From a virus (Duplodnaviria > Caudoviricetes): DNA of 64,000 nucleotides. The notes beneath the pieces were generated by a model, which made no database searches, had not been told where the DNA came from, and saw only the letters and a program-made list of their open reading frames with translations. Made by a program: the position numbers and the translations under genes. The stretch lies in IMG/VR virus record IMGVR_UViG_3300025120_010521, one strand, 5' to 3'. Below are positions 9,289 through 63,797 of this stretch, piece after piece (the first letter of the stretch is position 1; the number at the start of each line of letters is the position of its first letter).

Positions 9289-9806
9289 TAGAACCTAACG
9301 TCCTTGAGATCATAGCCTGTGAATCTATGATATAATTCAGTGAATTTATCCTTGTTACCGAGACCTTGTTCTATCCAACAGCCTGCTAGTGTGGCCATTT
9401 TCCAAGGCTTGTTCACACTCATGCTGTGCTGTTCGAACCACTGTTCTATCTCAGGCATGTACTCCAACAGTGCCAAACCGTCATGTGGCTGTGTGCTGTA
9501 GAGTATACAAGCGGGTGCCCAATATACATCCTCGCAATAGTGTGTGTTGTGTATGTTACGCATCTGTGTGTGGGTTTTCATTGTTGTGGTACTGCGATAT
9601 TTGTTGGTATGATAGCGACTCCAATCAACTGCTTCTATGCTGTGTGTGGCTACGTTTGCCCATGCACAACCTTGATACAGCAGATTCTTATAGTACTGTG
9701 TGATGTTTTGTTCGTAGTAGCTGACGTATCGACTGTAGCTGGGCTCTAGGTCCATTTCCAATTGATTTAATTGTTCAAGTGTGTGATCTATTTGATCTCT
9801 ATACAT
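9288..9806 (-). CDS. Hypothetical protein
   Basis: ORF track; overlaps the nitroreductase 3' end. Confidence 0.55.
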   Translation of the reverse strand: MYRDQIDHTLEQLNQLEMDLEPSYSRYVSYYEQNITQYYKNLLYQGCAWANVATHSIEAVDWSRYHTNKYRSTTTMKTHTQMRNIHNTHYCEDVYWAPACILYSTQPHDGLALLEYMPEIEQWFEQHSMSVNKPWKMATLAGCWIEQGLGNKDKFTELYHRFTGYDLKDVRF

Positions 9807-10558
9807 TTAATGTCGCGATTTTCTTTGGAAAATGATGGGAATTTAATTTCTTTGGGTAGGTAGTGTATGTTACCTTGGTTGTCTTCTGCGGATATCTGTT
9901 TTATATCCACTATTTTACCCGGATTGTCTGTCCATGCTCCAGTGGCTTGTCCTATCAATACTTCATGTTGATCTGACTGTGTGTGTTCTAGATCCTGCTG
10001 TGGATATCCAATGCCTATGCCATATTCCAGTGCTTTCGTACCATCATTTACGCCATCCAATATGTTCAAACGTTTCCACCAATATTCCTTGTCTGGAGGT
10101 GAACTCATGTTCTTGTTGAAGCCTGTTGCATAGCCCATTTCCGCGGCCGAACGTGCAATCAAGCCCATTGCCAGTCCAATTGAAGCCAAACAGTTATCAC
10201 GTCTGCCCTGATATTCTTCTGAACGACCTTCGCCATCTACTTCATAGTTACGCATTGTATCTGGATACTTGCTTACAAAACACATGTAAAAATTAGCACC
10301 CATTTGTGGATTTCTCCAACAGCTAGGTGGTGTTGTTGTGGCTGTAAAACCCCATGTGTATTCTAGCATTTCTTTGATTACTTCAGCTTTGCGAATAAAA
10401 TAAACATCATAATATGCTTCATGTTGTTTGCTTGGGGCATTTTGAGCTATCCATAACCAGTGATCAATATGCTCTTGAGGTATGGATTTTGTTAGGTCCC
10501 AATTGCGTTGGCACTTTTTAATAGTATTAATATACTCTTTTTCTTTATCCATACTCAT
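9788..10558 (-). CDS. Nitroreductase-family flavoprotein
   Basis: IKKCQRNW (R-x-S-x-R equivalent), AQNAPSKQ, and ASIGLAMGLIARSAAEMGYATGF helix. Confidence 0.8.
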   Translation of the reverse strand: MSMDKEKEYINTIKKCQRNWDLTKSIPQEHIDHWLWIAQNAPSKQHEAYYDVYFIRKAEVIKEMLEYTWGFTATTTPPSCWRNPQMGANFYMCFVSKYPDTMRNYEVDGEGRSEEYQGRRDNCLASIGLAMGLIARSAAEMGYATGFNKNMSSPPDKEYWWKRLNILDGVNDGTKALEYGIGIGYPQQDLEHTQSDQHEVLIGQATGAWTDNPGKIVDIKQISAEDNQGNIHYLPKEIKFPSFSKENRDIKCIEIK

Positions 10559-10563
10559 AAAAG

Positions 10564-10571
10564 TATTTATA
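10564..10571 (-). promoter_or_regulatory. T4-late-like promoter TATAAATA (representative copy)
   Basis: Exact TATAAATA upstream of the nitroreductase and at 22713-22720 (+); ATAAATA variants precede genes starting at 11672, 12712, 13503, 26610, 30833, 33396, 37689, 39159 and 57159. Confidence 0.6.
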
Positions 10572-11672
10572 TTACCTTTTAATTATGCTTTTTATATCAG
10601 GATTATGTGCTGTGGAACATTTTTCATTACAGGTTATATAGGATCTATTGTTCCATGCTGACTGTAGCTGAGAAAAATACTTTGAATTTAATATATCTGT
10701 TATTGAATCTTGTGAATAAATTGAATGAATTTCTGGATCAAGTCCTTGTGAAAATGATGAAGCACCTTCTTTGAGGCTACGATCAGTCCCCATCCAACAG
10801 CAAGGAGTAATAAATCCATGTGCTGTGATAAAAAGACTTCGTTTAATTATGCTATTTTTTTCTAAAGCCTTGCAAAAAATGGTATCTTTTTTTACTGTTG
10901 CTGTGGTTTTGGGCATAGAAAATGGTGGTATTTTTTTATTAATTGGTGTATTTTTTATTTGATTGCTAGTATCATGCTGTATATATTTTTTCTTTGGGCT
11001 TTTATCAATTTTAATCTGTGGATTTTTTCTGTTGCTGTTGATTATTTTAATAGAATTAAATCCCCAGGCTTTATAATTGGATTCAATTTCATTTAATTGA
11101 TGTTCATTATGATCAAATACAATAATTTGCCATGTTGAATTACCACCTGCTTGATTATATGCTGTATAATTCTCTTTTAATTTATTCCAATTAACACCTT
11201 TGCGATAGATATGATTTGTATCTTCTAGGCCATCTATACCCCATACAACTCTTAAATCAATATTTTTTTGTTTTAATTGATTGCTTTTTTCTCCTAATTG
11301 TTTCCACCATTCTCTATCTCTAGTACCACCGTTGGTAGCAATACTAATAGACTTTGCTTGTGGTAGATATTCTACAGTATAATCAATAAATTGCATAATT
11401 TTTGGATGTACAGTTGGTTCGTCATAGTTTCCACAATAGTGTATTTCACGTAGACTTTCCCATTTATCATTTGTAATCATTTTTTTGTATCTGTCTATAT
11501 TTAAATGTGTTGAATTTATGCTGACTGGGTATGGTGATTCTTGTTTGTATCCTTTAAGCCAATCTGAATTTAAATAGTTTACTCTTGCACAATGAGGACA
11601 ACCAGCATTACAATAATTTGTAAGCTCTATTTGTAAACGTGTAATTTGATCTGTTTTAAGTGCCCAAGACAT
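10572..11672 (-). CDS. Radical SAM protein with C-terminal SPASM/twitch domain
   Basis: ELTNYCNAGCPHC (CxxxCxxC), GNYDEP, ATNGG, GIDG; C-terminal GFITPCCW...CNEKC. Confidence 0.9.
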   Translation of the reverse strand: MSWALKTDQITRLQIELTNYCNAGCPHCARVNYLNSDWLKGYKQESPYPVSINSTHLNIDRYKKMITNDKWESLREIHYCGNYDEPTVHPKIMQFIDYTVEYLPQAKSISIATNGGTRDREWWKQLGEKSNQLKQKNIDLRVVWGIDGLEDTNHIYRKGVNWNKLKENYTAYNQAGGNSTWQIIVFDHNEHQLNEIESNYKAWGFNSIKIINSNRKNPQIKIDKSPKKKYIQHDTSNQIKNTPINKKIPPFSMPKTTATVKKDTIFCKALEKNSIIKRSLFITAHGFITPCCWMGTDRSLKEGASSFSQGLDPEIHSIYSQDSITDILNSKYFSQLQSAWNNRSYITCNEKCSTAHNPDIKSIIKR

Positions 11673-11685
11673 ATAACTATTTATG

Positions 11686-12052: not shown

Positions 12053-12712
12053 TTACAGTTTACCAAAGCCCCATAGTCTTTCTTCACACCACCAGCATTT
12101 ACCACAATGCGGAGTAATTGAAGGATCTAATTCTGTTTCCTCACATGTCCTTGTTACATTAAATAAAGTGTCCATTAAGTTATACTTCTTATAAAGTTCT
12201 GCAACACCTTTCTTATCAATATTAACAAGTATTCTTCCATGTGCTGTGTCTTTTCTTTTCTGTTCTTTATCACGACCTGGAGATGGTTCGTCATTTGGGT
12301 CATCAGGTGACCACTGTTTATAAACTTCTATTGGAGGGTTAGCTGTAACACCACTAAACTTACAATCTATAATTTTGTTTTTAGTTAAGATACTTTGTAG
12401 TTCTTCCATACGTTCGTTATAATCACTACCGTCTGAATGTATTGTAAAATGTTCTTTATGCCATCTAACATTAGGGAACTCTCTTTTTAACCACCATTTA
12501 ACTTTAGAAGCATACCATATATTATGAGGTTTTAAACCATGTATGACTGTAAATGGTACAATGGTACAGTCTGGTCGATGATCACGTATGTACAAGCAAA
12601 TTAGATAGGCTACAATGGATGAATCTAGTCCACCGCTCAACTTTATACCAATGTTTCTTTTGTTTGAATCAACGTTTATTTCTATTGTATCTTGTGATGT
12701 TTCTACAATCAT
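12053..12712 (-). CDS. QueC-like PP-loop ATPase (7-cyano-7-deazaguanine synthase-like)
   Basis: IKLSGGLDSS PP-loop; C-terminal TRTC...HCGKCWWCEER zinc site as in QueC. Confidence 0.7.
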   Translation of the reverse strand: MIVETSQDTIEINVDSNKRNIGIKLSGGLDSSIVAYLICLYIRDHRPDCTIVPFTVIHGLKPHNIWYASKVKWWLKREFPNVRWHKEHFTIHSDGSDYNERMEELQSILTKNKIIDCKFSGVTANPPIEVYKQWSPDDPNDEPSPGRDKEQKRKDTAHGRILVNIDKKGVAELYKKYNLMDTLFNVTRTCEETELDPSITPHCGKCWWCEERLWGFGKL

Positions 12713-12865: not shown

Positions 12866-13462
12866 GTGGACAAAATAATTTTAACAGATATTGATGGAGT
12901 TGTCTTTGATTGGCATACAGCATTCGTAAAGTGGATGGAATTGCAAGGCTATTCTTCTACAGGAGTTATACATCATGACGCAGAAATACAAAACGAGTTT
13001 GGTATTTCTTTACAAGAAGCTACTGTGAAAAGAGAAGAGTTCAATGCCTCTATGGCTTGTTCTGTTTTAGAACCAATGAGACAGTCTGAAGAATATATTA
13101 AGAAGCTACACGAAGAAGGTTATCATTTTATTGCTATTACATCATTAAGTGATAAACCGATTGCACAATATTATCGTTACCTAAACATTGAAGATTACTT
13201 TGACACTGATGTATTTGTTGATGTAAGATGTTTACCAGCTGGCGCACCTAAACTAGATGCTATGATGGACTTTGAAAACAGCGGATTAATATACATTGAC
13301 GATAGAATTTCTAACTTAGAAGACGCATTAAAGGTTGGATTAAAGCCTGTACTAATGAAACATGCTTACAATATTCACTACGCAAATAAAAATGTACACC
13401 AGGTTGCTAACTGGAAAGACATCTACGATTACGTTACACAGACGTACAAAAACAGCAAATAA
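12866..13462 (+). CDS. HAD-family 5'(3')-deoxyribonucleotidase-like phosphatase
   Basis: LTDIDGVVFDW motif I, ITSL, YIDDRISN motif IV. Confidence 0.8.
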   Translation: MDKIILTDIDGVVFDWHTAFVKWMELQGYSSTGVIHHDAEIQNEFGISLQEATVKREEFNASMACSVLEPMRQSEEYIKKLHEEGYHFIAITSLSDKPIAQYYRYLNIEDYFDTDVFVDVRCLPAGAPKLDAMMDFENSGLIYIDDRISNLEDALKVGLKPVLMKHAYNIHYANKNVHQVANWKDIYDYVTQTYKNSK

Positions 13463-13502: not shown

Positions 13503-14651
13503 ATGACAAAAAAATGGTGTAACGCAGGAACGTCTCATATATGGCTTAGACATGACAGGAAAATAACACCATGTTGTGCCTTAGGTGAACCAATGGAATT
13601 TAACCTAGACAAGGACGGAGACTTTCTAAAAAAGATGCAGTCTTCGGAATTCATTAAAGCAATTGAGCCATTAGCTAACGGTCCGTTACCTAAAGGTAGA
13701 TGCGACCAGTGTCTTTCTCAAGACAGTGCAACAACAACAGAAAATAAAAGATCTAGATCAGTTAGACATAAAATTAATCACTTTTCTAATCCAGTAATTG
13801 GAGCTCATGGAAAACAGAATAACAATCCTTTCTTTTTAAAAATTGACTTTTCAAACAAATGTAATTTAAAATGCGTAATGTGTAATAGTAAAAGATCAAC
13901 CGGTTGGGTAAAAGACGAGCAAAAACTTTCTGAACTTGGTATGTTTCCTAAAAAAGCAATAAGTTCATATGATAAGTTACCAGACAAGTGGTGGTTAAGA
14001 AATAGTAAACAATGGTGGGAGTCAGTAACCAAAGTTGAAATATCAGGCGGGGAACCTTTTTATGAACCTATGCTATTTGAATTTTTAGAGTTTCTATTAA
14101 GTATAGGAAGAAGTAGTATTAATCTTTCAATCATTACTAATCTTACATTATATAATAAAAATATTGATACTATTTTAAGAAAGTTTAAAAACGTTGACCT
14201 ATTATGTAGTGTTGATGCTTGGGAACAAGATGTCTATCAATATTCAAGAGGAGGCATATATACTTTAGAAACAATAAAAGAAAATATCAAACAACTATCT
14301 AAAGTAGCATCAAGATTAAGTATAGTAGACACAATACATTGTACAACGTATGATCAATCTAAACTAGCTAAAAAATGGATTAAAGAACAAAACCTTGATA
14401 ATGTATATCATAATGTAAACTATGTATATACTCCAAGACACTTAGATGTAAGATCGGTATTGCCAGACTCTATGTTAGAAACAAATAAAGATATTAAAAT
14501 TCCACAATCAGGTTTTAAAAAAGAAAAACAATTACAACATAAATTTTATAACTGGATTAATGCACTTGATAAAGTGAGAAACACAAACATACTAAACATA
14601 AGACCAGAATTTGAATCTTGGTTTAAAGAAATTGAAACATGGGCAAAGTAA
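13503..14651 (+). CDS. Radical SAM protein with N-terminal twitch/SPASM-like domain
   Basis: WCNAG...ITPCC; FSNKCNLKCVMC; ISGGEPF; ITN; SVDA. Confidence 0.9.
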   Translation: MTKKWCNAGTSHIWLRHDRKITPCCALGEPMEFNLDKDGDFLKKMQSSEFIKAIEPLANGPLPKGRCDQCLSQDSATTTENKRSRSVRHKINHFSNPVIGAHGKQNNNPFFLKIDFSNKCNLKCVMCNSKRSTGWVKDEQKLSELGMFPKKAISSYDKLPDKWWLRNSKQWWESVTKVEISGGEPFYEPMLFEFLEFLLSIGRSSINLSIITNLTLYNKNIDTILRKFKNVDLLCSVDAWEQDVYQYSRGGIYTLETIKENIKQLSKVASRLSIVDTIHCTTYDQSKLAKKWIKEQNLDNVYHNVNYVYTPRHLDVRSVLPDSMLETNKDIKIPQSGFKKEKQLQHKFYNWINALDKVRNTNILNIRPEFESWFKEIETWAK

Positions 14652-15922
14652 TAGCAATAGACAACGATATACAAAATCCTTATTCATTTGAAGTTACATG
14701 GGATTTAGGATTAAGATGTAATTACGACTGTACCTATTGTCCTGCACATAGACACAACAATACTTCTTCACATGCAAGTTTAGAAACATTAATTAAAACA
14801 AGTAAATTTGTTTTTGAGTATAAAAAATTAATGCAATCACAAATGACTTTTGATAGACAGTGGAATATTGGTTTTACAGGTGGGGAACCAACTAACAATC
14901 CAAACTTCTTAGAAATGTGTCAATACATACATGCACAAAATGATCCAGACGTATTAGTTGATGTTACTACTAATGGAGCATTTAGCCAAAAGTATTGTGA
15001 TAAACTTATAGAAGCTGTTGATTCTATTACAGTAAGTTATCATTGTGAAGCAAAACAAAAGATAAAAGATAATGTAGTTGCAAGAATATATCAGTTACAT
15101 AACTCAGGAATCAAATATAAAGTTAATTTGATGGTACATGCTAAACCAGAATACTTTGATGAATGTATGAAGCTCGTTGATAGGTTTACAGACGATAATA
15201 TAAAGTTTGTACCTCGTATCATTGGTGAAAGCTATGAAGATAGTAAGTATGTACATCGATATACTCCGGAACAACATGCATGGTTTAGAAACTATTGGAC
15301 AAATAAAAACAAAAAAATAAACAAGCCTGATGCAAATAAAGATGCAGAGTATGAATATAAAGATGATCAAAAGAAAGTACAACAACAAAAACAAGTTGTA
15401 CATACTCTAAAAGAAAAACCAAAAGTAGTAAAAGAAATATCACCAAAACCAAAAGAAGTCAATACAAGAAAAGCATTAGGAAGACCTTGCTGTGGGCAAA
15501 GAACTTTTTATACACTAGATGAAGATCAATATAAGAAAGACAATGTAAAGCTAGATACTAATGATTGGAAAAAATCTGTATTTGCGTGTTCAACTGAATA
15601 TAAAGAATGGTCATGCATGATAAATTGGAATTGGCTACACATTGAACAAGAGTATAATAAAATATTACATCATCAAACATGCAGAGCAAATTTTGGAGGT
15701 AAGAAGGGAGAGATAGGAACTATTACTGAGTGTGATCAAATAATAAACAAACTAGAAAAACAGTTTGCTACCGGAACTATGCCAGTGATAACTTGTCCAA
15801 ACAAAGTTTGTGGTTGTGGTTTGTGCGTACCTAAAGCACAGCATCACGATATAACTAAAGCAATGTTTAAAAAATCAGTAAAGAATCTTACTCCTGTAAT
15901 AGGTGGTACATTGAATGCATAA
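14639..15922 (+). CDS. Radical SAM protein
   Basis: WDLGLRCNYDCTYC; FTGGEPT; VTTNG; C-terminal CPNKVCGCGLC. Confidence 0.9.
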   Translation: MGKVIAIDNDIQNPYSFEVTWDLGLRCNYDCTYCPAHRHNNTSSHASLETLIKTSKFVFEYKKLMQSQMTFDRQWNIGFTGGEPTNNPNFLEMCQYIHAQNDPDVLVDVTTNGAFSQKYCDKLIEAVDSITVSYHCEAKQKIKDNVVARIYQLHNSGIKYKVNLMVHAKPEYFDECMKLVDRFTDDNIKFVPRIIGESYEDSKYVHRYTPEQHAWFRNYWTNKNKKINKPDANKDAEYEYKDDQKKVQQQKQVVHTLKEKPKVVKEISPKPKEVNTRKALGRPCCGQRTFYTLDEDQYKKDNVKLDTNDWKKSVFACSTEYKEWSCMINWNWLHIEQEYNKILHHQTCRANFGGKKGEIGTITECDQIINKLEKQFATGTMPVITCPNKVCGCGLCVPKAQHHDITKAMFKKSVKNLTPVIGGTLNA

Positions 15923-17123
15923 AGACTATCAAAAGTTTATTAAAGAACACGGTAATTCTTTTTGTGTGTTGCCTTTTACAGAAATATGTAATACAGCACA
16001 AGGACACGGGCAATTGTGTTGTTTTTCAGATACAATAGATTCAGACATGTACAATAATCAAATAATTGATACATGGAAAAATAATAACGTTCTAAATAAT
16101 ATAAGAGAAAAAATGTTAAGTAACAAACCTATTAAAGAATGTCGTAGGTGTTATCAATATGAAAAAGACGGAGCATATTCATTAAGTAAAAGACTTAATC
16201 AATCAATTGAAATAGAAAATAAATTTCCGGGAACGGTACAAAAAATAAAAGAACAAGGTGGCTTAACACTTAGAACTTTAGATCTAAAGTTTGGTAACAA
16301 ATGTAATCTTGCGTGTGTAATGTGTGATGGACATAGTTCTTCCTTACATACAAAAGAAAAGCAAAAATACCCTGTGCCTAATGATCTAAAAGAATTAATA
16401 GTATCAACCGGTGAAGACAATGACTTTGATAGAAATAACTTACAAGAGTTATTAGAGCAGGCACCAAACTTACTAAGATTAAAGTTTACAGGTGGCGAAC
16501 CAACATTATTAGATGGGTTTAAAGAATTTATACAAAAACTTTCACAAACATCATATGCTAAAAACATAGAAGTTATTATTGTTACAAATGGCACAACTGA
16601 TGTAACTAAATGGATACCTATTTTTAGTAAGTTTAAACTTGTAGATATAAACTGGTCTACAGATGGTATAGGTAGTACATTTGAATATATTAGATGGCCT
16701 GGTAAATGGGAAAAGACAAAACAAATACAGCAATCATTTAATGAAACTATTAAACAATATAGTAATATTAAGTCAACACTAACGTCAGCAATACAATTAT
16801 TAAATTTAGATCAATTGCCAGACTTATTAAAATATGGTAAAGAATATAACTTTACTAAATTTTCACCGGTACTAGTTATGTGGCCTGAAGCACTTAATAT
16901 TGGTATTGTTCCAAAAGAAATAAGAACACAAATAATAAAAGAATGTCAACCTTACATTGAAACATATCCGCAAGTAAAAAGTTTTACAAGCATTATAGAA
17001 AAAGCAAACAGTCATTTAACATGGAAAGACACAAAAAACTTTTTATCCTACTATGATCATATTAGAAACTATTCAGCGAAAGACATGTGTACAATATATA
17101 ATAAAATTAATAGTAGAGTATAA
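15915..17123 (+). CDS. Radical SAM protein with N-terminal twitch domain
   Basis: FCVLPF...QLCC...CRRC; GNKCNLACVMC; FTGGEPT; VTNG; STDG. Confidence 0.9.
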   Translation: MHKDYQKFIKEHGNSFCVLPFTEICNTAQGHGQLCCFSDTIDSDMYNNQIIDTWKNNNVLNNIREKMLSNKPIKECRRCYQYEKDGAYSLSKRLNQSIEIENKFPGTVQKIKEQGGLTLRTLDLKFGNKCNLACVMCDGHSSSLHTKEKQKYPVPNDLKELIVSTGEDNDFDRNNLQELLEQAPNLLRLKFTGGEPTLLDGFKEFIQKLSQTSYAKNIEVIIVTNGTTDVTKWIPIFSKFKLVDINWSTDGIGSTFEYIRWPGKWEKTKQIQQSFNETIKQYSNIKSTLTSAIQLLNLDQLPDLLKYGKEYNFTKFSPVLVMWPEALNIGIVPKEIRTQIIKECQPYIETYPQVKSFTSIIEKANSHLTWKDTKNFLSYYDHIRNYSAKDMCTIYNKINSRV

Positions 17124-17369: not shown

Positions 17370-17410
17370 TACTATTATTTATAGGTTTCTATGTGTAGTT
17401 ATACAGCAAC

Positions 17411-52745: not shown

Positions 52746-53408
52746 CTACCTTTGCTTCATATTTTTACACACACCTGCAAGTGTTTCTTCATTTACATCA
52801 ACATTAACAACTAACCAATACGCAGGATCAGGTGTTGTATTAAAAAGATAATGCATTTTAGCAGTATCAACAAAATATAAGATTCCTTGTTGCCATTGTA
52901 AAACTTTATCTTCTAATATAAATGTCATACCAGGAGTGTCACAATTCTTTAACGGCATTATTAATCTAAATGTATCAAAAATTAATTTATTTGATTGATG
53001 AAAATCATATTCATCTGGATGATCTCTATGTGGAGGAAAAAATCCACCTGTGTTTAATTTTAAAATATGTGTTCTAAATATATGTCCTTTAAATGGTTCT
53101 AAACATTCTTGTAATGACTGCCAATCAAATACCGGCGTTGGTGTTTTAAAGTCTCTTTCGGTCCACTCTGTTCCATTTTCTTTATTATATTCATATACAC
53201 TATCTAAATCTGGTCTACCAGATAGTCCGCCATCTAAACTTGTAATACTTAAACCTTCTCTAGGATAACTTTTTCTTGGATTATACTGTACATAATCAAA
53301 CTGTTTTTCAGTCCAATCAATAAATGCAGAAGAATCCTTCATACGAAGTTTTAAAGGATACTGTGCTCCAAATGTTATTAGATCTCTGTATAAACTGTTT
53401 TTACTCAT
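52746..53408 (-). CDS. 2OG-Fe(II) dioxygenase, Asp/Asn beta-hydroxylase-like
   Basis: GGFFPPHRD...YFVDTAKMHYLFN. Confidence 0.8.
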   Translation of the reverse strand: MSKNSLYRDLITFGAQYPLKLRMKDSSAFIDWTEKQFDYVQYNPRKSYPREGLSITSLDGGLSGRPDLDSVYEYNKENGTEWTERDFKTPTPVFDWQSLQECLEPFKGHIFRTHILKLNTGGFFPPHRDHPDEYDFHQSNKLIFDTFRLIMPLKNCDTPGMTFILEDKVLQWQQGILYFVDTAKMHYLFNTTPDPAYWLVVNVDVNEETLAGVCKNMKQR

Positions 53409-55791: not shown

Positions 55792-57035
55792 GTCAATGCC
55801 TCTGATAGTTCTAAAAAAGTAGTACGCCAATTCTCATTACGAACACTATCAATTAGATTTGCTTTCTCAAAGAACTCTGTCGACAGATCACTAGAAGCAT
55901 AATTTAATCCTTTTAATATTTTATCATAACTTTTTTCTATAATAGATATTAATTCCTTATTACTTTGATATGTTAACAATAACTGATCTTTATGTTGTAA
56001 TACTAAATTTTTAATTTTAGATTGATTAGATATACTTAAATTTGATAATGACAGATACTGTGGTGTTTGTGCTAAATGTAAATCTAAAAAGTTTTTTGTT
56101 ATAATACTTTTTGGAAAATAATTAGCTATCCAATTAATAAACTCTTTTAGATACAAAACATTATATATTGTTAAGGTATGTCCAATTACAACTGAAACGT
56201 TTGTATGCTGTTGACTTACATCTACCCACTTTGTAGCTGATTCTGTAACCTTATCCCATTGCGAACCTTTTCTTAAAAACTCTGCTCGTTTTTCAATTGC
56301 ATCTAAACTTAGATCTATTTTAGCACTTTTAAAATTTGGTATTAGTTTTCTATATTGATCTTTTGGAAAGAAAGAACAATTTGTAAAAACTTCTAAATGT
56401 ATATTTTTTGCTATATCCCACTTAACTAAATTAGCTAGAAAAGTTTGAAATTGATCATTTAAAAAAGGTTCACCGCCTGTTGCTTTTACATTTTTTAAAT
56501 GTTTTACTGTATCAAATGATATTGTCGATAACGATTGATTTGTTTTTGGAAGTTGTTTTATATTAATATATTCGTGGTGTTCATTTCCAAAAAAGTTTTT
56601 TATTAGTTCACTATCTTTATCTAAATCTTCATCCCATGTTGTTGATAGTTTTGGTCCACATGATCTACATTTTAAATTACAATACCTACCTGTTTGTATT
56701 TCAAGAAACTCTAACTGTGTTTCATCATATTTAGGGTTTTGTTTATAATCATAACTTATTTCACCATTTGTATCAATAGCACTTTCACGCATTGATTTTA
56801 TACCAGCTTGTTCATCTTGATAACATCTCCAACATCCTTTAATTTGTTTACCTTCTAATGATTTTTTTCTTAACGTATCCCATATCTTATTGTATCCATT
56901 ATCAAAAGACTTTGAATATTCTAATGAATCATCTTTATATCGACAGCATGGAACAATAGAGCTATCAGGAACCTGCATGACAGCACCCCGAAAAAGGTAT
57001 GGACAGTAAGTTTTATTGTTTTTTAGATCAATCAT
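55788..57035 (-). CDS. Radical SAM protein with N-terminal twitch domain
   Basis: YCPYLF...VPCC...CWRC; GRYCNLKCRSC; ATGGEPF; FTN; SLDA. Confidence 0.9.
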   Translation of the reverse strand: MIDLKNNKTYCPYLFRGAVMQVPDSSIVPCCRYKDDSLEYSKSFDNGYNKIWDTLRKKSLEGKQIKGCWRCYQDEQAGIKSMRESAIDTNGEISYDYKQNPKYDETQLEFLEIQTGRYCNLKCRSCGPKLSTTWDEDLDKDSELIKNFFGNEHHEYINIKQLPKTNQSLSTISFDTVKHLKNVKATGGEPFLNDQFQTFLANLVKWDIAKNIHLEVFTNCSFFPKDQYRKLIPNFKSAKIDLSLDAIEKRAEFLRKGSQWDKVTESATKWVDVSQQHTNVSVVIGHTLTIYNVLYLKEFINWIANYFPKSIITKNFLDLHLAQTPQYLSLSNLSISNQSKIKNLVLQHKDQLLLTYQSNKELISIIEKSYDKILKGLNYASSDLSTEFFEKANLIDSVRNENWRTTFLELSEALT

Positions 57036-57158: not shown

Positions 57159-57974
57159 ATGTTAGTACGTAAAAAATATCAATTACCAACAATGTGGAAA
57201 TTTGAGAACCATAAGTTTGACATCGAACGATTAAAGAAAGAAGCACTTGTTTTAGCTAATGACTATGGTAATGTGATGGACACTAATAAAGCATTATGTT
57301 CAAACAATCACGAATTAGTTATGAGTGTGTATAAACATTTTAAACAAATTAATCTTACAGAATTTGATCCGCAAGGAGAAGCACCTACTGTTGAGTCTTG
57401 TGAAGTAATGGGTAAGACTGCGGGAACTGGTGATGAAGCAATTAGTAAAATTGCAAAATATAGGTTAAAAGCAAGACGTGGAGAAAACTTAGATCCAGCA
57501 TTAAACGAGCATAACTATAATACTCCTACTGAAAAGTATAAAGGTACATACTTTGAAGAAGTAGTAAACTCTTTTAATTCAGATGCAATAAGAGTAAGAC
57601 TTGTAAGGTTAGATCCCGGCAAGACTCTTACGCCACATATTGATTACGATCCGACTTATGCTGTAAGAGTTATTATTCCTATCTTTGCAGAAGAAGAAGC
57701 AACAAATTACTTTTGGAGAAAAAGTAAAGAAGAAGCATATCATTTAAAAGCAGATGGTTCAGCATATTTCTTAAATATAGGATTTACTCATACTGTAGTA
57801 AATTCTGGAAATACACCAAGAATTAGCTTAATGTTTAGTTTAAAAGATCAATCAGACTTACAAGAAATACCAGAGAATGATTGGAATGAAAATAACAACA
57901 TGGGCAACTTGCAAATACAAAAAGCATATAAAGAACATAAGGCCCAGGCAGATGCCCAACCATTGGCTGTTTAA
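57159..57974 (+). CDS. 2OG-Fe(II) dioxygenase, Asp/Asn beta-hydroxylase-like
   Basis: RVRLVRLDPGKTLTPHID...FLNIGFTHTVVNSGNTPRISL. Confidence 0.85.
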   Translation: MLVRKKYQLPTMWKFENHKFDIERLKKEALVLANDYGNVMDTNKALCSNNHELVMSVYKHFKQINLTEFDPQGEAPTVESCEVMGKTAGTGDEAISKIAKYRLKARRGENLDPALNEHNYNTPTEKYKGTYFEEVVNSFNSDAIRVRLVRLDPGKTLTPHIDYDPTYAVRVIIPIFAEEEATNYFWRKSKEEAYHLKADGSAYFLNIGFTHTVVNSGNTPRISLMFSLKDQSDLQEIPENDWNENNNMGNLQIQKAYKEHKAQADAQPLAV

Positions 57975-58278
57975 AACAGAAGTAAAAGAATCAAATATAC
58001 ACGGACAAGGAAGGTTTGCATTAGAAAACATTCCAATTGGTCGACAGGTAGTTGAGCTTAAAGGCTCTATTGTTCCAAAAGAACAAGCACCTCAAAAATT
58101 TCCTGTTAGTTTAACTCACAACATGGATTGTGAAGATACATTTATTAATCACAGCGAAGATTCAAATTTAGCATACTTAGGTGGTACTAGTTTTGTTTCT
58201 GCTAAAAATATAAAAAAGGGTGAAGAATTAACTATGGACTATAAAGAATTTGCTGGTGATAGAAAATTTTTATTCTAA
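57952..58278 (+). CDS. Minimal SET-domain protein (second copy)
   Basis: ESNIHGQGRFA; FINHSEDSN; IKKGEELTMDY. Confidence 0.85.
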   Translation: MPNHWLFKTEVKESNIHGQGRFALENIPIGRQVVELKGSIVPKEQAPQKFPVSLTHNMDCEDTFINHSEDSNLAYLGGTSFVSAKNIKKGEELTMDYKEFAGDRKFLF

Positions 58279-58542: not shown

Positions 58543-59232
58543 TTATTGATTAAATTTTGCTTTCCAATCCATATTAGCAAATGGCCAGCCTGTAATAACA
58601 ACACGACAATTTGGTTTAGCATTTGTAACAGGATTTACATAATGAGCTGATCCTACTCGCATTAGCACACAAGAGTTTCTTTTTGGTTTAATTGCTAATG
58701 GACCTACTAGATAAGGGTCTTGTTTTGATTCTTTAAATAATTTTGTTTTAAATTCTTCCCAGTTTTCTTTTTCTTCAGGATGAAAGTTAAAATGATCTGC
58801 TAACATATATTCGTTTGGCAATACTAATTCGCCGCCTTCTTCATTTGTTAGATAATGTATAAAAACAAATTCACCATATATATCTTTACGTTCAGTGTGG
58901 ACATTATATATACTTTTTGGATTAAATGTTTTAGTAGTAAATTGTAAAACATTTTTTTCATTTATATCTTCTATTAGTATTGGTTTATATACATCTGCTA
59001 ATATTTCATTTAGTTTATTAATTACTGCTAATACTATATCATTATCTTGATGTACATTATATTTTACATGATTATAATTGTAGTATGACTTACTAATAAT
59101 ATGTGGTTGTTCATTACCATCTAGTTCTTTAGTTTCTGATTCACGGATATGACTTAATGCTTTGTCTACAAGAGCATCATCGATAAAATGTTCTGTGTGC
59201 CATACTTCATCATAAACTAATTCATTCCACAT
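58543..59232 (-). CDS. 2OG-Fe(II) dioxygenase (HxE variant)
   Basis: VHTE...EEGGELV...GSAHYVNP...RVVITGW. Confidence 0.75.
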   Translation of the reverse strand: MWNELVYDEVWHTEHFIDDALVDKALSHIRESETKELDGNEQPHIISKSYYNYNHVKYNVHQDNDIVLAVINKLNEILADVYKPILIEDINEKNVLQFTTKTFNPKSIYNVHTERKDIYGEFVFIHYLTNEEGGELVLPNEYMLADHFNFHPEEKENWEEFKTKLFKESKQDPYLVGPLAIKPKRNSCVLMRVGSAHYVNPVTNAKPNCRVVITGWPFANMDWKAKFNQ

Positions 59233-59999
59233 TAATGACAGTCCTCTGGCTTTGGTTGTTCATGACGTTTAGAGTCAAAGTAATAATTAAAATTACAATG
59301 TTGATCTAAACCATTAATGAGATCTTTTGTAGCATAAGGCCATCCAGTGACTACTTGTCTTGATTCTTTAGTTACTTCGCCTTGCAAAGGATTTACATAA
59401 TGAGCTGACCCTATTGCAAATACTACACACTTATTATACGTTGGCTTTACAACTACATCATCTAAATAACGCATTGGAAATCCTTTTGATTCTACTAACT
59501 GTATATTTTCTTGCCATCTAGCTTCTTGTTTAGGAAACTGCTGTAAATGTTTTTCTACTCCATTGCGACTAGGAAATACTAACTCACCACCTTCTTCAGA
59601 AGAAAGAAAATGCATAAAAGCATATGGACCGTATTTGTCAATTGGCTCAGTATGTAGATCATACCAACCACGTTTTGAAAAACTCTTTGTGAATAACTGT
59701 AAGCCTTCTAAGTTATCCATAGGTACTGTTGCTTCTGTAAGTGGTTGCATTAGCTCATTCACTTTACCCATATATAAATCAATCAATACTCTATCTTTAT
59801 GTATATCAGTTCTATGCACTGTGTAATTATATGTTGTTGCATTAACTCCTGAATTTCTAAAGTTTGGCAATATTGCTTCGCCAGGTTCTAGTTCAGTTTT
59901 ACCTGCTGTTAACATATTTTGTTTTATTTGACTAATTGTACTGTCATCAAGAAAGTTATCATATTCCCATAACTCATTCTTTACTAATTCTTTCCACAT
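59232..59999 (-). CDS. 2OG-Fe(II) dioxygenase (HxE variant), tandem paralog
   Basis: LHTE...EEGGELV...GSAHYVNP...RQVVTGW. Confidence 0.75.
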   Translation of the reverse strand: MWKELVKNELWEYDNFLDDSTISQIKQNMLTAGKTELEPGEAILPNFRNSGVNATTYNYTVHRTDIHKDRVLIDLYMGKVNELMQPLTEATVPMDNLEGLQLFTKSFSKRGWYDLHTEPIDKYGPYAFMHFLSSEEGGELVFPSRNGVEKHLQQFPKQEARWQENIQLVESKGFPMRYLDDVVVKPTYNKCVVFAIGSAHYVNPLQGEVTKESRQVVTGWPYATKDLINGLDQHCNFNYYFDSKRHEQPKPEDCH

Positions 60000-61780
60000 T
60001 ATCTTTCGCTCCCTATAGCAACAATCTCAGTTGGTTTAATACGAGCGTCTGTACCATACATACTCATATCAAATTCTTTTTTCCATTCTGATATATCATA
60101 TTTAACCAACTTCTCTGGAAATACTTTTGACAAATCTTCTACAAACTGATCTTGGTTATGCCAAAACTGATATATTTCATCTGCACGTAAACATCTTGAA
60201 AAATACAAATATGTTGCTAAATCTTTTACTTCTGTTCTTGGCTCATCTTTAAATATATTTCTAATTATTTGTCTGTTCTTTTCTACTAGTTTAATCATTA
60301 AAGGCATTTTATCTAAATGCTTATAAAACCATTTAACTTGGAACTCTATATCATGCCCAGTATCAAATAAATCTTTCATAGTATGATTTAATGCTCTTGA
60401 GTTATGAAAGTTATGGTAGAACCACCAATAGTCAAACATACGAACAATTTCATCTTCATCATATGAAAAACATTTATGCATAATTTCTATCTCTTCAAAT
60501 TCATATGTGCTACGTTCATCTCTGTACTCTGGATGATTATGCAATTGCTTATATCCTAGTCCTGAAAACGAATAAGGAAATGCAAGTATCTTAGATTCTA
60601 CCTTGTGTTCTTTTTGAAACTTATCTGTATATAATTCTGTATTAGGTACTAGGTTTAAAAAGTATGATCGCATAAAATCAATACCAAGCTCATAATCTTT
60701 ATTCAATGAGTATAACCAACTGTCTGCTGTTTCGCCAGGTAAAGCAATAATCATTTCTGATGTTACTGGTAATCCTTTAGACTTAAAACTATCAATTAAA
60801 GGTAATAGTTTATCATTGTTAATATTTGCTCTGTTAATAACTTTTAATGTTTCTTTTGCATGTGTTTGGAAACTTACTTTCAAATTACGTTGATCAGCAT
60901 CTAAATTGTTATGTATTATATCGATAATCTCTGGTAACCATTTACTACCATTCTTTGCAAGTCCACTATAAGATATTTTAGGATTATTGCCTGTTGCTTC
61001 TTTATTTGCTTTCATTTTTTTAACGACATCTAAATCTCTAGGTAACATACCAAAGTTAGCATCAAGTATCTCTACTTCTGCTATGTTGGTGTGTTTGTAT
61101 ATAAAGTCTAATTGTTCATTTACAGGATCCATATCAAACTTTGTAACTTTTGATCTTGCTTGTCCACCCCAATCGCAGAATGCACATTTAAAAGGACAAC
61201 CACGATTAGTTTCAAATGATGCTTTAACTCTTTTTTCTTCAGCAAGTATAGAATCAAATACTCCATCTAAATATGGTGTAGGCATTTCATGAGTTTCAAT
61301 TTGATATAATTTTTTTCCTACCTCTACGTTATTCCATCCTAACCCAAAACTACCGTCATGTGTACTCATTGGAGTATCAATATTTTGTAAAAACTTACTA
61401 ATTAACTTTTCACCAGGACCTACCCAAAATATATCTATATAAGGATGATCTTTTGCAAACTTTTCTGCAAGTTTAGGATCTTCAGGTACATTAGGTCCAC
61501 CATACATTGTAATACCATTTGGGTTTACATCTTTGTAATGACTCATCAATTGATCATTATATGCTTGGTTCCATACGTAACAAGTTAACCCAAATACATC
61601 AATATTTTTAAACTCTTCTGTATATTCTTCTACAGGTTTATATTTGTATATTGGATCATTGAATTTATAATTTGATTTTATTTCTGGAATCTTATTACAG
61701 TAACTAATAAGGCATGCCGCGGCATATGGCAACCATGTTTCATGTATAACCGATACTGTGCCTAATTGTACTGTTTTCAT
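59999..61780 (-). CDS. Cobalamin-binding (class B-type) radical SAM protein
   Basis: N-terminal B12-binding-like DVFGLTCYVWN...GGPNV...GPGE; ETNRGCPFKCAFCDWG; ILDANFG; IIALPGET. Confidence 0.9.
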   Translation of the reverse strand: MKTVQLGTVSVIHETWLPYAAACLISYCNKIPEIKSNYKFNDPIYKYKPVEEYTEEFKNIDVFGLTCYVWNQAYNDQLMSHYKDVNPNGITMYGGPNVPEDPKLAEKFAKDHPYIDIFWVGPGEKLISKFLQNIDTPMSTHDGSFGLGWNNVEVGKKLYQIETHEMPTPYLDGVFDSILAEEKRVKASFETNRGCPFKCAFCDWGGQARSKVTKFDMDPVNEQLDFIYKHTNIAEVEILDANFGMLPRDLDVVKKMKANKEATGNNPKISYSGLAKNGSKWLPEIIDIIHNNLDADQRNLKVSFQTHAKETLKVINRANINNDKLLPLIDSFKSKGLPVTSEMIIALPGETADSWLYSLNKDYELGIDFMRSYFLNLVPNTELYTDKFQKEHKVESKILAFPYSFSGLGYKQLHNHPEYRDERSTYEFEEIEIMHKCFSYDEDEIVRMFDYWWFYHNFHNSRALNHTMKDLFDTGHDIEFQVKWFYKHLDKMPLMIKLVEKNRQIIRNIFKDEPRTEVKDLATYLYFSRCLRADEIYQFWHNQDQFVEDLSKVFPEKLVKYDISEWKKEFDMSMYGTDARIKPTEIVAIGSER

Positions 61781-62379
61781 AATACCTCTGAAACATCTTT
61801 TATAGTTCCATTATGTTGATGCAATATTACTGCGTTGGTTGGTTTCCATTTATAATTTGGATCAATGTAATAGCTATAGATAAACTGTATCATATTTGAT
61901 TTTGGCTTATCGTGAAACACTAGATCTTTTTCAAGTGTTAGCTTTTTATAATCTTCATCTTCAAACCAACTGTTATCGCCACCTACGTATTTTTTCTTAT
62001 GCTGAAATAATTTATTAATTGCTACATCTTTAACATCATGTGTCCAGTAATAATGTTTAAACCCATTGTCTTTTGCCCAAGCAATTTGATGCTTCATCAT
62101 TTTAAATCCATAACGTCCATGCCTGTGTTTTTTAAGAATATGATATCTGCATTTCCTAATAGACTCTGGAGTGCCTGTGATAAAACTTCTTTCAGCATAA
62201 CTTATACTAGCAACTTCGTTATCAACTAATGCTAACCACAAACTGCTTTTATCATCTAATTCATCTATGTTAAATTTTTCTTTTTTATAAGTTCCGGAAC
62301 TTCCTTCTATTACTGCTTGTATGAGAAAGTCTTCAACTATTGGTTTATATGCTGAAGTATATTTTAATATTTTTTCCAT
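61777..62379 (-). CDS. GNAT-like acetyltransferase (likely start MEKI at 62379)
   Basis: RKCRYHILKKHRHGRYG motif-A-like; AWAKDNGF. Confidence 0.55.
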   Translation of the reverse strand: MEKILKYTSAYKPIVEDFLIQAVIEGSSGTYKKEKFNIDELDDKSSLWLALVDNEVASISYAERSFITGTPESIRKCRYHILKKHRHGRYGFKMMKHQIAWAKDNGFKHYYWTHDVKDVAINKLFQHKKKYVGGDNSWFEDEDYKKLTLEKDLVFHDKPKSNMIQFIYSYYIDPNYKWKPTNAVILHQHNGTIKDVSEVL

Positions 62380-62380
62380 A

Positions 62381-63043
62381 TTATATGTACCATGATTCAA
62401 TAGATATATTTTTGATATGCACATTCTTTGGTTGGTTGACCATATAGTATACTGATTCAGCTATCTTATCTGATGGTACTAGTTTTACTCCCATAGGAAT
62501 TGTTTTTTTATATTCAGGAGATTTTTCAAATAGTCCTGTGTCTACCCAACCTGGTCTTATGATAGAAACTTTACATTTTCCTTTTCCATAAACACCAAAG
62601 TTATCAACAACTGTTTCTAATGCAATTTTTTGATGATAATAAGGTTTGACTATTTCAGCTGGCTCATTATGATCTTTTGCTGTTGACCCTATGCAAATAA
62701 TCAGTTTATTTTGTTTTTGCCACATTTCATAAACAGCATAGAGTAAATCTAACTGGCTCCATTGTAAGTGAGCATTGTTGATGAATATATCATAGTCTTT
62801 GATTTCTCTCAAAAATCTTTTTGTATCTTCTGTGTATTCAAAGTCTTGGTGTTTATCAGATTCTTGATCAGTAGTATATTGTTTTCCGATGTTTTTTAAA
62901 TTAAAACCTGTGGCACGACTAAAGCCAACAACATCATGGCCTTGTAAAATTCCCATATTGTATATGGATTTACCAATTCCGGATGTATGACCTGTTACTG
63001 CTATTTTTAAATTTTTAGAAGATTGAGTCTTCCTTTTTCCCAC
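62381..63043 (-). CDS. Short-chain dehydrogenase/reductase
   Basis: IAVTGHTSGIG; DIFINNA; ICIGS; YYHQK; IRPGWVDT. Confidence 0.85.
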   Translation of the reverse strand: MGKRKTQSSKNLKIAVTGHTSGIGKSIYNMGILQGHDVVGFSRATGFNLKNIGKQYTTDQESDKHQDFEYTEDTKRFLREIKDYDIFINNAHLQWSQLDLLYAVYEMWQKQNKLIICIGSTAKDHNEPAEIVKPYYHQKIALETVVDNFGVYGKGKCKVSIIRPGWVDTGLFEKSPEYKKTIPMGVKLVPSDKIAESVYYMVNQPKNVHIKNISIESWYI

Positions 63044-63044
63044 T

Positions 63045-63797
63045 TTATTTTACCTCTAATTGTTTTATGAACCAACCACCCATATCAAACTCCCACCATT
63101 TATGTTGAAAATTTGAATTGTTAGGATTTGCATGATGATTATTATGCCAGCCTTCACCCCACATTAATATTCCTAACATTGGAACATTAGTTGAGTTATC
63201 AGGAGTTTCATGGTTTCTATATCCAATCATATGAGAAAGAGTGTTAATAAATGATCCTGCATTCCAAAGTATCATTGCTGGAAATAGATAAGCTGATACT
63301 AGTAACATTGGATCAATCATATACCATGTTCCGGCAATTGCTAAATGTATTAAAATATAATATCTATGAGTGAACAAATGAAATTTATTTCTAATAAGTT
63401 TAACAACGTACCTCGGTTTTGGCTTATCAAACATGCTTAACCATTGAACTTTAAAAAAGCCTTTGTACGATGGTGAGTGTGGATCATCTTCGCTATCAGT
63501 ATGCACATGGTGTTCTCTATGAATAGCTACCCATCCTATAGTTGATCCGGTTAACCCGTATGTACCTGCTAGTGATCCAAAGTAGTAAAACCATTTAGGC
63601 GCCTTCCAACTTGCATGACTTAACAATCTATGATATGTCATTGTCATTCCAAAACATCCAGTAATAAAATATACAAAAAATGCTATCACCCAATGATACC
63701 AAGCACCATACACAATCATAGGTATAATGCTTAGATGTGCGATCATCTGAGCAACAAATAAAAAATACTGATCTTTAGTTGTTTCTTGCTTTTTCAT
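63045..63797 (-). CDS. Delta-9-type fatty-acid desaturase (second copy)
   Basis: HRLLSH, HREHH, GEGWHNNHH. Confidence 0.92.
   Translation of the reverse strand: MKKQETTKDQYFLFVAQMIAHLSIIPMIVYGAWYHWVIAFFVYFITGCFGMTMTYHRLLSHASWKAPKWFYYFGSLAGTYGLTGSTIGWVAIHREHHVHTDSEDDPHSPSYKGFFKVQWLSMFDKPKPRYVVKLIRNKFHLFTHRYYILIHLAIAGTWYMIDPMLLVSAYLFPAMILWNAGSFINTLSHMIGYRNHETPDNSTNVPMLGILMWGEGWHNNHHANPNNSNFQHKWWEFDMGGWFIKQLEVK

Follow-up and report, generated by a model that had tools for sequence, protein, structure and literature searches.

The stretch of DNA analysed in the present study (64 kb in full, hereafter the window; IMG/VR virus record IMGVR_UViG_3300025120_010521) is best explained as the hypervariable island in the tail-fibre region of an uncultured giant T4-like marine phage. 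About 54 kb of it, around the tail-fibre genes, hold 12 radical S-adenosylmethionine (SAM) enzymes, about ten Fe/2-oxoglutarate (2OG) oxygenases and a set of sugar-handling genes. There is, in our judgement, about an even chance that an unusual sugar or glycan is built and edited by this island in the cytoplasm late in infection, with a virion component as the favoured acceptor. An earlier reading of the sequence (the original prediction) had named four possible targets, i.e. DNA, virion proteins, glycans and the host envelope; a sugar or glycan substrate is now favoured among these. Genes are named below by their lower coordinate in the window.

The window has a G+C content of 30–39%, seven tRNA genes and about 70 tightly packed genes, and phage hallmarks are intermixed with the genes of interest. 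These include a tail-fibre-like structural protein of 1135 residues (17700..21107, minus strand; matches to PHROG families of tail fibre, head decoration and virion structural proteins, with E as low as 5e-48), in which internal repeats were seen in the sequence, an Mtd_N-type fibre or receptor-binding protein (21638..22570, minus strand; Pfam Mtd_N 54.9 bits), PhoH and a phage lysozyme. No near cultured relative is apparent, since a megablast search of the tail-fibre gene against cultured phages gave no match and the PhoH protein shared at most 52% identity with any entry in the phage collection searched. Among metagenomic sequences, an IMG/VR contig of 71 kb (G001, also L001) is syntenic with the window from 30.8 to 63.8 kb, with protein identities of 59–96%, and a 328-kb contig (L089) has much of the long minus-strand unit described below, most of the common genes being 66–91% identical. 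In addition, a 9-kb piece of the island is present almost letter for letter in marine metagenomes (matches in 20 runs from 13 studies; at least half of the sampled words were found in 13 runs). The window is therefore part of a real and widespread phage, and not the cellular island or assembly chimera that the original prediction had allowed for.

The island genes are intact and under purifying selection. For the 34 genes with orthologues in G001, among them eight radical SAM and nine oxygenase genes, the ratio of nonsynonymous to synonymous substitution (dN/dS) was 0.02–0.29, and the catalytic motifs are in place, contradicting the alternative that most copies lack catalytic residues. Contigs from RNA-labelled libraries exactly matched parts of 45385, 46139, 48305, 53405, 54562, 57159, 58543 and 63045. 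This is a weak hint of transcription, as the matches are to contigs, DNA carry-over is possible, and two of the runs seem to belong to a single data set; gene parts with no matching contig carry no information either way.

Twelve radical SAM genes had been predicted, in four architectures (six with an N-terminal twitch domain, three with a C-terminal twitch/SPASM domain, two of the CNYxCxYC type and one of the cobalamin type), and both the number and the grouping held. All 12 open reading frames (ORFs) are intact with one CxxxCxxC motif apiece, and the motif was found in no other ORF of the window. Pfam PF04055 matched all 12, ten of them above its gathering score of 29.5 bits. The two below, 41693 (21.6 bits) and 55788 (26.9 bits), were accepted, 55788 because it reached 243.3 bits with NCBIfam NF033640 and 41693 because it is a paralogue of 10572 (E 1e-29) and 32188 (E 1e-18). 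Twelve such genes within 54 kb are far beyond chance, and the paralogues share just 22–29% identity with one another.

The N-terminal twitch proteins are 13503 (13503..14651, plus strand; 174.1 bits with NF033640, CNLKCVMC at residue 120), 15915 (15915..17123, plus strand; 258.1 bits), 36493 (36493..37689, minus strand; 354.1 bits), 40512 (40512..41672, plus strand; 187.9 bits), 54562 (54562..55830, minus strand; 322.1 bits) and 55788 (55788..57035, minus strand). These six passed the cut-off of NF033640 (N_Twi_rSAM; 170 bits over the whole protein) with 174–354 bits, and the other six radical SAM proteins gave 55 bits or less, or no match. The likeness to the family lies in an N-terminal cysteine module, CxxxCxxC and GGEP: in the family alignment invariant C10, C28, C71 and C74 (36493 numbering) precede C129, C133 and C136, after which GGEP follows. 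Profile positions 7–78 match the twitch domain of BtrN (E 7e-7), and Pfam SPASM matches the N-terminus of 40512, 54562 and 36493, which is the most typical member (SPASM 47.7 bits). This domain comes after the core in BtrN but ahead of it in the N_Twi proteins of the window. We know of no characterised member of this family, of no reaction for it, and of no member with a demonstrated substrate; the last of these weighs against a sugar substrate.

A common C-terminal module, C-x18-23-CC-x51-68-CxxxC, was found in 10572 (10572..11672, minus strand; PF04055 35.1 bits, SPASM 22.6 bits), 32188 (32188..33396, minus strand; PF04055 30.8 bits, SPASM 24.9 bits; dN/dS 0.146) and 41693 (41693..42742, plus strand; dN/dS 0.046). 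Pfam SPASM matches the first two. The cysteines concerned are residues 267, 291, 292, 348 and 352 in 10572, in which CNAGCPHC stands at residue 21, and residues 243, 262, 263, 332 and 336 in 41693, where the module is twitch-like. A sequence search of the PDB with 10572 gave nothing useful. The two CNYxCxYC-type proteins are paralogues of each other: 14639 (14639..15922, plus strand; PF04055 37.7 bits), with a MoaA/viperin-like core whose top NCBIfam matches (MoaA 1e-11, viperin 2e-10) are both far under cut-off, and 53405 (53405..54571, minus strand; PF04055 47.9 bits), which shares 94% identity with its orthologue in G001 and 74% with a gene of another radical SAM array (L087).

The twelfth enzyme, 59999 (59999..61780, minus strand; dN/dS 0.038), is a cobalamin-type (class B) radical SAM methylase by homology to TokK and CysS. 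Its residues 15–387 align with TokK residues 21–395 (E 3e-49; CysS E 2e-33), a span that takes in the cobalamin domain and the core. With NF033712, the KedN5 family, it gave 155 bits against a cut-off of 700, and Pfam B12-binding was not reported. It is thus a relative of the TokK/CysS/KedN5 group and not a member of the KedN5 family.

More than 1,796 relatives of 36493 were found in metagenomes, and 17 array loci were compared with 65 single-copy loci from bacterial chromosomes, the array neighbourhoods being read from precomputed Pfam annotations. N_Twi genes are single-copy in the bacterial loci, whereas phage contigs, including the window, carry three to eight deeply diverged paralogues together with other radical SAM types, often in tight co-directional arrays of up to 12 radical SAM genes in 21 kb (10–12 in L087 and L088). 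The partners, some of which occur in each array, are a nucleotide-sugar dehydrogenase, a NodU-type carbamoyltransferase, a cobalamin radical SAM enzyme, an epimerase/dehydratase, DegT and a methyltransferase. Thus, among unrelated phage contigs, one of 518 kb (L002) has about ten radical SAM genes with the UDPG dehydrogenase, cobalamin enzyme and carbamoyltransferase, and L003 and L086 also have the epimerase/dehydratase, DegT and methyltransferase. In six contigs (L003, L086, L023, L008, L009 and L012) the array lies directly behind a homologue of the Mtd_N-type fibre gene 21638. L002 also encodes a T4-type spanin (18115–21251) together with a heme oxygenase and a ferredoxin-dependent bilin reductase in the same stretch, and its genome is therefore very large and cyanophage-like. 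Distant N_Twi-like genes (23–25% identity over more than 80% of 36493) occur in cultured phages as well, namely Vibrio phages K566 and K567 (OZ196521.1 and OZ196593.1; three places each) and Ralstonia phage RsoM2USA (MG752970.1; two places).

A FastTree phylogeny of 73 N_Twi proteins has long branches and is reliable only in its broad pattern. In it the copies from the window do not cluster, and the nearest relative of each of the six lies in another phage contig. Other arrays show the same pattern, the sets of L005, L009 and L012 giving one member to each of five separate clades, and eight of the ten bacterial single-copy proteins included form one clade beside the group that holds 36493. The arrays therefore consist of old, distinct N_Twi subfamilies kept together, which would fit different steps or specificities better than recent duplication. 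The original prediction had called the system diversifying, and this is true of cassettes, which are gained and lost between relatives; it does not hold for the six N-twitch paralogues, given the age and distinctness of their subfamilies. As to the cassettes, L089 has an extra radical SAM gene between the dehydrogenase and the reductase, with TauD-family and other genes in place of 45385 and 44808, and G001 is without the lysozyme and the small nucleotidyltransferase. A contig labelled as a Haliscomenobacter metagenome-assembled genome (L005/L095) was considered as a bacterial context and set aside, having almost no Pfam-annotated neighbours.

Three genes of the syntenic block, 32188, 34467 and 40512, share only 66%, 59% and 59% identity with their G001 orthologues, most of their neighbours being at 79–96% (84–96% for most genes flanking 40512), and their dN/dS values are 0.15–0.29. 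This suggests allele replacement or faster evolution of single genes inside the block.

Several partners of the radical SAM genes in the window are predicted enzymes of sugar activation. The nucleotide-sugar dehydrogenase 48305 (48305..49519, minus strand; Pfam UDPG_MGDP_dh_N and central domain, TIGR03026 E 8e-39) is 72% identical to its counterpart in Bellamy, 50% to that in HTVC008M and 53–67% to homologues in radical SAM arrays. Next to it lies the NodU/CmcH-type carbamoyltransferase 49516 (49516..51000, minus strand; Carbam_trans_C 188 bits, Carbam_trans_N 129 bits), with homologues in L002, L005, L020, L089, Bellamy and HTVC008M. The same unit encodes a small nucleotidyltransferase of the cytidylyl/adenylyl-transferase superfamily (51512..51874, minus strand; CTP_transf_like 25.2 bits; NMNAT-like E 1e-8, below cut-off), which is absent from G001 and L089. 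A PP-loop ATPase of the QueC/NadE-like kind (12053..12712, minus strand; its last 57 residues match Pfam QueC with 23.3 bits) shares 28% identity with an L089 gene directly before the carbamoyltransferase and sugar dehydrogenase, the position held by the 'NadE-like' gene in Bellamy and HTVC008M, and may amidate a uronic acid rather than make preQ0.

Three proteins resemble short-chain dehydrogenases/reductases (SDRs): 62381 (62381..63043, minus strand; Pfam adh_short 28.3 bits), the short 24116 (24116..24667, plus strand; Pfam adh_short_C2 28.6 bits) and the short 50997 (50997..51515, minus strand; N-terminal TGxxxxG), which matches one L089 gene also matched by the other two. There is also a GNAT acetyltransferase (61777..62424, minus strand; Pfam Acetyltransf_1 22.3 bits). 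A further lead is 51877 (51877..52743, minus strand), possibly a pyridoxal-phosphate-dependent, aminotransferase-like protein; an Atlas feature search gave viral clusters (0.92–0.98) carrying Aminotran_1_2, and HMM and PDB searches gave no match.

Transfer of a sugar is suggested by 22740 (22740..24119, plus strand), a conserved protein of no sequence family: it matched nothing in Pfam, NCBIfam or PHROGs, and its family profile found no PDB match. Its AlphaFold2 model (pLDDT 87.6, from an alignment of 24 relatives) shows the two Rossmann-like domains of a GT-B glycosyltransferase. The best match is Helicobacter pylori alpha-1,3-fucosyltransferase (2nzw; VIA Z 13.3, rmsd 4.7 over 291 residues), and the best 50 structural entries are all glycosyltransferases. 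Homologues of 22740 sit within the radical SAM arrays of L002, L003, L005, L023 and L086, i.e. in five of the 17 array loci compared with one of the 65 single-copy loci.

The island also carries what is usually the reducing system for radical SAM clusters, a flavodoxin (39596..40039, minus strand; Pfam Flavodoxin_1 85.5 bits) and an Fpr-type ferredoxin/flavodoxin-NADP reductase (47543..48304, minus strand; Pfam FAD_binding_6 and NAD_binding_1, NCBIfam PRK10926 E 7e-36). The same pair could also feed two membrane fatty-acid desaturase-like di-iron enzymes of about 250 residues in the long minus-strand unit, 46139 (46139..46897, minus strand; PF00487 53.2 bits, with transmembrane segments) and 63045 (63045..63797, minus strand; PF00487 51.7 bits), in both of which the His boxes HxxxxH, HxxHH and HxxHH are intact.

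Ten 2OG dioxygenases had been predicted in addition. An HxD/E...H triad with a basic residue about 10–13 positions past the distal His is present in all ten proteins, and eight are backed by a hidden Markov model (HMM), homology or fold; for 30833 and 44808 the assignment is at the level of the HxD...H...R motif. Four are Asp/Asn-hydroxylase-like: 26610 (26610..27374, plus strand; a cupin with 47.4 bits to PF05118, Asp_Arg_Hydrox, gathering score 22.6 bits; triad H and D invariant), 38569 (38569..39159, minus strand; 41.7 bits; dN/dS 0.061), 57159 (57159..57974, plus strand; 26.2 bits) and the cupin 52746 (52746..53408, minus strand; dN/dS 0.044), which scored below the cut-off (18.8 bits) and is related by BLAST to 26610 and 57159 with the triad kept. 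The prolyl-4-hydroxylase-type 58543 (58543..59232, minus strand; PF13640, 2OG-FeII_Oxy_3, 33.6 bits) has a paralogue in 59232 (59232..59999, minus strand; 33% identity, E 4e-42), with the common motif HTE...SAHYVNP...R.

For 46881 (46881..47546, minus strand; invariant H91, D93, H172 and R184) the fold itself was examined, as for no other of the ten. Nearly all of the best 50 Foldseek PDB rows for its AlphaFold2 model (pLDDT 88.7) are 2OG oxygenases of the double-stranded beta-helix fold, such as ALKBH2, PHD2 and proline 3-hydroxylase (probability up to 1.0, TM 0.3–0.46), and a PDB sequence search with the family profile gave nothing useful. 45385 (45385..46155, minus strand) joins the 46881 family by hhalign (97.2%, E 3e-11), with PHxD, GYR and PHG in register. 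44808 (44808..45410, minus strand; invariant H114, D116, H161 and R171) is a probable 2OG oxygenase of a small, phage-only family with just 11 representative clusters among 1.8 billion proteins, and 30833 (30833..31411, plus strand; HID at residue 102 with a later His and Arg; dN/dS 0.098) is a possible one. A link between these two was tried and rejected: the motif is in register, but hhalign was not significant (E 0.02, probability 2%). The triad is invariant in the family alignments of 46881, of 44808 and of the four Asp/Asn-hydroxylase-like proteins, and a local HMM of those four did not pull in the four unassigned oxygenases.

LpxO, the lipid A hydroxylase to which the original prediction had pointed, is an inner-membrane enzyme. 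The four Asp/Asn-hydroxylase-like proteins have no membrane segment (Kyte-Doolittle, window of 19 residues), and the lead found no support. Collagen-like Gly-X-Y runs were found in no ORF of the window, which therefore offers no substrate for prolyl hydroxylation of collagen-like fibres.

The genes do not form the single assembly line first envisaged. They fall into several separate units amid tail-fibre, tRNA, PhoH and lysozyme genes: 10572–9788 (minus strand), 13503–17123, 22740–28014, 40512–42742, 57159–58278 and a long minus-strand unit, 63797–44808, in which start and stop codons overlap across 19 kb and a gap from 58543 to 57035 is filled by the plus-strand pair 57159–58278; 30833, 32188, 36493 and 38569 stand as single genes. 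The claim that many are driven by late promoters agrees with the motifs. ATAAATA, the core of the T4 late promoter TATAAATA, occurs 25 times in the window, and 18 of the 25 copies lie in sense no more than 60 nt upstream of a gene start, compared with roughly a single copy predicted from how much of the sequence is of this kind. Every unit that carries a radical SAM gene is headed by the motif. It lies 5 nt upstream of 9788, 10572 and 26610, 6 nt upstream of 36493 and 38569, 8 nt upstream of 32188, and 37, 36 and 30 nt upstream of 13503, 57159 and 63045, respectively; the full TATAAATA stands 18 nt upstream of 22740. The small genes at 0.8–7 kb have TATAAT-like elements instead.

Two further observations concern these motifs. 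The full TATAAATA is depleted in the window, with six copies where shuffled sequence would give 13 (six or more in 98 of 100 shuffles), which fits selection against stray promoters. At seven genes, ATAAATA lies 5–8 nt before the ATG and no Shine-Dalgarno sequence is present (9788, 10572, 26610, 32188, 34467, 36493 and 38569; spans 9788–10571, 10572–11684, 26598–26610, 32188–33411, 34454–34467, 36493–37702 and 38569–39172), and tRNA-Leu(CAG) has the motif at a 6-nt spacing too (17369–17382). Transcription from T4 late promoters starts 6–8 nt past the motif; if the same applies here, the late mRNAs of these seven genes would be leaderless.

Taken as one system, the late-motif-headed units would jointly encode a soluble, cytoplasmic pathway that makes and edits a sugar or glycan. 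The dehydrogenase, carbamoyltransferase, PP-loop ATPase and small nucleotidyltransferase, together with the SDRs, the GNAT protein and the possible aminotransferase, would activate and derivatise the sugar, and the GT-B glycosyltransferase 22740 would transfer it. The 12 non-redundant radical SAM enzymes could contribute radical chemistry, e.g. oxidation, epimerisation, deoxygenation or C-C bond formation, with C-methylation added by the TokK-like 59999, hydroxylations by the roughly ten Fe/2OG oxygenases, and electrons supplied by the phage flavodoxin and Fpr-type reductase. We infer that the substrate is a sugar because the conserved partners are sugar-nucleotide enzymes and a glycosyltransferase, because the solved relatives of 59999 (TokK and CysS) methylate small molecules, and because the N_Twi twitch domain matches that of the aminocyclitol dehydrogenase BtrN. 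That the units serve one product would be a further step, and that the acceptor is a virion component is the weakest. A virion acceptor is our first choice, held tentatively, because of the late-type motifs and the position among fibre genes, and because no flippase, polymerase or multi-pass membrane protein was seen besides the two desaturases; these and two small ORFs are the only membrane-spanning proteins of the island. The host envelope comes next, reached via host machinery as proposed for the glycosyltransferases of pelagimyophages (PMC7029224).

Several findings weigh against the glycan explanation. The 54 kb yielded a single glycosyltransferase, whose family is absent from most of the array loci examined. 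Lipid chemistry is suggested by the two desaturase-like genes of the main unit, the scattered units may have different products, and the late timing is read from a motif. The SET-domain protein, the Asp/Asn- and prolyl-hydroxylase-type oxygenases and the GNAT protein point to proteins rather than sugars, and the Hyphomicrobiales setting of N_Twi, with PqqD, an HprK-like gene and an ABC exporter as neighbours, resembles peptide maturation.

These last points are also the ground for an unlikely but serious alternative, the direct modification of proteins or peptides, i.e. hydroxylation, methylation, epimerisation or cross-linking of virion proteins such as tail fibres, or of a ribosomal peptide that has escaped recognition. 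Radical SAM enzymes with SPASM or twitch domains mostly mature peptides, and SET, prolyl- and Asp/Asn-hydroxylase-type and GNAT enzymes are families with protein substrates. The combination would resemble the tailoring of proteusins, ribosomally made peptides of the polytheonamide type in which a radical SAM epimerase, cobalamin radical SAM C-methyltransferases and a 2OG hydroxylase act on one substrate, and the genes lie among tail-fibre genes with late motifs. In three Hyphomicrobiales loci (L065, 8214–15325; L050; L064) a lone N_Twi gene stands in a conserved operon, in the order ABC exporter, N_Twi, PqqD (a peptide-recognition domain), HprK-like, two GT2 glycosyltransferases and NTP_transf_5; the neighbourhoods of bacterial single-copy N_Twi genes outside the Hyphomicrobiales consist of unrelated housekeeping genes. 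However, the operon includes the two GT2 genes; it may make a glycosylated peptide and offer a tractable bacterial model of the family. An HMM of the three PqqD proteins encoded next to bacterial N_Twi genes detected no PqqD-like domain in the six frames of the window (best E 0.15), and among the small ORFs at 42.7–44.8 kb, the one stretch read for this purpose, no peptide with a Cys-rich or repeated, core-like sequence was seen. Across phages it is sugar enzymes and a glycosyltransferase that are conserved as partners, unlike those of proteusins, and the solved relatives of the cobalamin enzyme work on small molecules.

It is rather less likely again that there is no common system, and that independent accessory genes, each with its own target, including host lipids or metabolism, have gathered in a recombination-prone region. 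Structural, PhoH, lysozyme and tRNA genes interrupt the units, single cassettes distinguish the relatives, and the desaturase-like genes with the Fpr-type reductase could be a lipid module of their own. The region has been called hypervariable in pelagimyophages and cyanomyophages, and an Asp/Asn hydroxylase was reported as a core gene of all pelagimyophages (PMC7029224). Set against this, N_Twi, CNY-type and cobalamin radical SAM genes recur in distant phages with the dehydrogenase, the carbamoyltransferase and the GT-B gene, often in one tight co-directional array; the N_Twi subfamilies are kept as sets across phages, and start and stop codons overlap along the 19-kb long minus-strand unit.

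Very unlikely is a role in nucleotide or DNA modification, with a hypermodified base or DNA-appended sugar shielding the genome from host nucleases: 14639 and 53405 have cores like those of MoaA and viperin, families that use nucleoside triphosphates, the QueC-like PP-loop gene and the NT5C/HAD phosphatase share one block, and T4 alpha-glucosyltransferase, which glycosylates DNA, is among the structures that align with the 22740 model (Z 10.0), but the MoaA, viperin and QueC matches are far under the family cut-offs, the PP-loop homologue of L089 adjoins a carbamoyltransferase and a sugar dehydrogenase, the window yielded no DpdA, no hydroxymethylase and no DNA-binding domain, and T4-type DNA-modifying enzymes are early genes, which clashes with the late motifs on these units.

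Several known systems are close to parts of the island. BtrN, matched by the N_Twi twitch domain, and TokK and CysS, matched by 59999, belong to pathways for aminoglycosides and further small molecules and tailor sugars, cyclitols or small molecules beside aminotransferases, dehydrogenases and carbamoyltransferases; such bacterial clusters have one to a few of these enzymes, whereas the window has twelve, in a virus and with late-type motifs. Among cultured phages, Bellamy (Synechococcus) and HTVC008M (Pelagibacter) have the same core, which consists of a carbamoyltransferase gene, a 'NadE-like' PP-loop gene and one resembling UDP-glucose dehydrogenase, placed among glycosyltransferases, methyltransferases and heptose (Bellamy) or nucleotide-sugar genes; tblastn with 36493 found no N_Twi relative in either genome. 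The island as a whole resembles the host-recognition cluster described by Zaragoza-Solas et al. (2020; PMC7029224), a large, non-syntenic, hypervariable island in the structural region of T4-like marine myoviruses (pelagimyophages and cyanomyophages) with VrlC and gp14 as its flanking markers, and the window fits it in mixing tail-fibre genes with glycosyltransferase and radical SAM cassettes that vary between relatives. That study named such cassettes in passing and proposed modification of the host O-chain by glycosyltransferases, and said nothing of enzyme classes, their partners or their timing. Nishimura et al. (2017; PMC5332604) mentioned a 183-kb T4-like marine genome, TARA_ERS488813_N000010, with 12 radical SAM and Fe-S-related genes, in one sentence on Fe-S cluster supply that proposes no function there. 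Phage glycan islands, radical SAM tailoring of sugars and radical-SAM-rich T4-like marine phages (2017 and 2020) are thus known, and in the literature searched only passing mentions were found, with no paper giving the reaction of the N-twitch family or the product of phage radical SAM islands.

What would be new is the proposal, possible though doubtful at present, that N_Twi is a class of carbohydrate-editing radical enzymes of which giant marine phages use fixed sets of 6–12 non-redundant members, powered by the phage flavodoxin and reductase, to build a radically edited virion glycan late in infection. If true, this would be the first glycan pathway with multiple radical SAM enzymes and the first in a virus, pointing to a chemically new virion surface relevant to host recognition or shielding. 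Radical SAM enzymes perform some of the hardest reactions in biology, and 12 of them with their own electron supply are a large outlay for a genome. The genes turn up repeatedly in giant and T4-like phages. Many large aquatic phages have the set, some of them related to phages that infect the most abundant ocean bacteria, and the N-twitch family runs to thousands of metagenomic members. If an edited glycan is the product, whether carried by the virion or by the infected cell, it would bear on host range, on shielding from defences or competitors, and on new sugar enzyme chemistry. The cultured phages K566, K567 and RsoM2USA are a usable handle as possible laboratory models, and Bellamy and HTVC008M carry the sugar core.

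Other genes of the units were less readily assigned. The first gene downstream of the radical SAM gene 10572 is nitroreductase-like (9788..10558, minus strand; Pfam Nitroreductase E 4.7e-4, below cut-off), and a HAD/NT5C-type phosphatase (12866..13462, plus strand; Pfam NT5C 30.9 bits, HAD_2 27.7 bits) lies before 13503. The unit of the GT-B gene includes a 645-residue protein (24664..26601, plus strand) that had no Pfam, NCBIfam, PHROG or PDB match and whose nearest Atlas clusters are viral-only. Pfam, NCBIfam and PHROGs likewise gave nothing for 22740, 27349, 30833, 44808, 45385, 46881, 51877 and 59232. The SET-domain protein, of the protein lysine methyltransferase family (57877..58278, plus strand; Pfam SET 35 bits), overlaps the 3' end of 57159, and its G001 copy is 77% identical (dN/dS 0.23). 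The desaturase-like genes lie at both ends of the long unit, 63045 being its first gene, with the Fpr-type reductase between them, and could belong to a lipid branch or indicate a glycolipid product. Finally, two paralogous kinase-like proteins (34467–35240 and 35237–35920, plus strand) share a DWNxxN...DL motif that recalls the catalytic loop of enzymes with the aminoglycoside-kinase (APH)/choline-kinase fold; no HMM or PDB match was found for the pair, and they may be sugar or small-molecule kinases.

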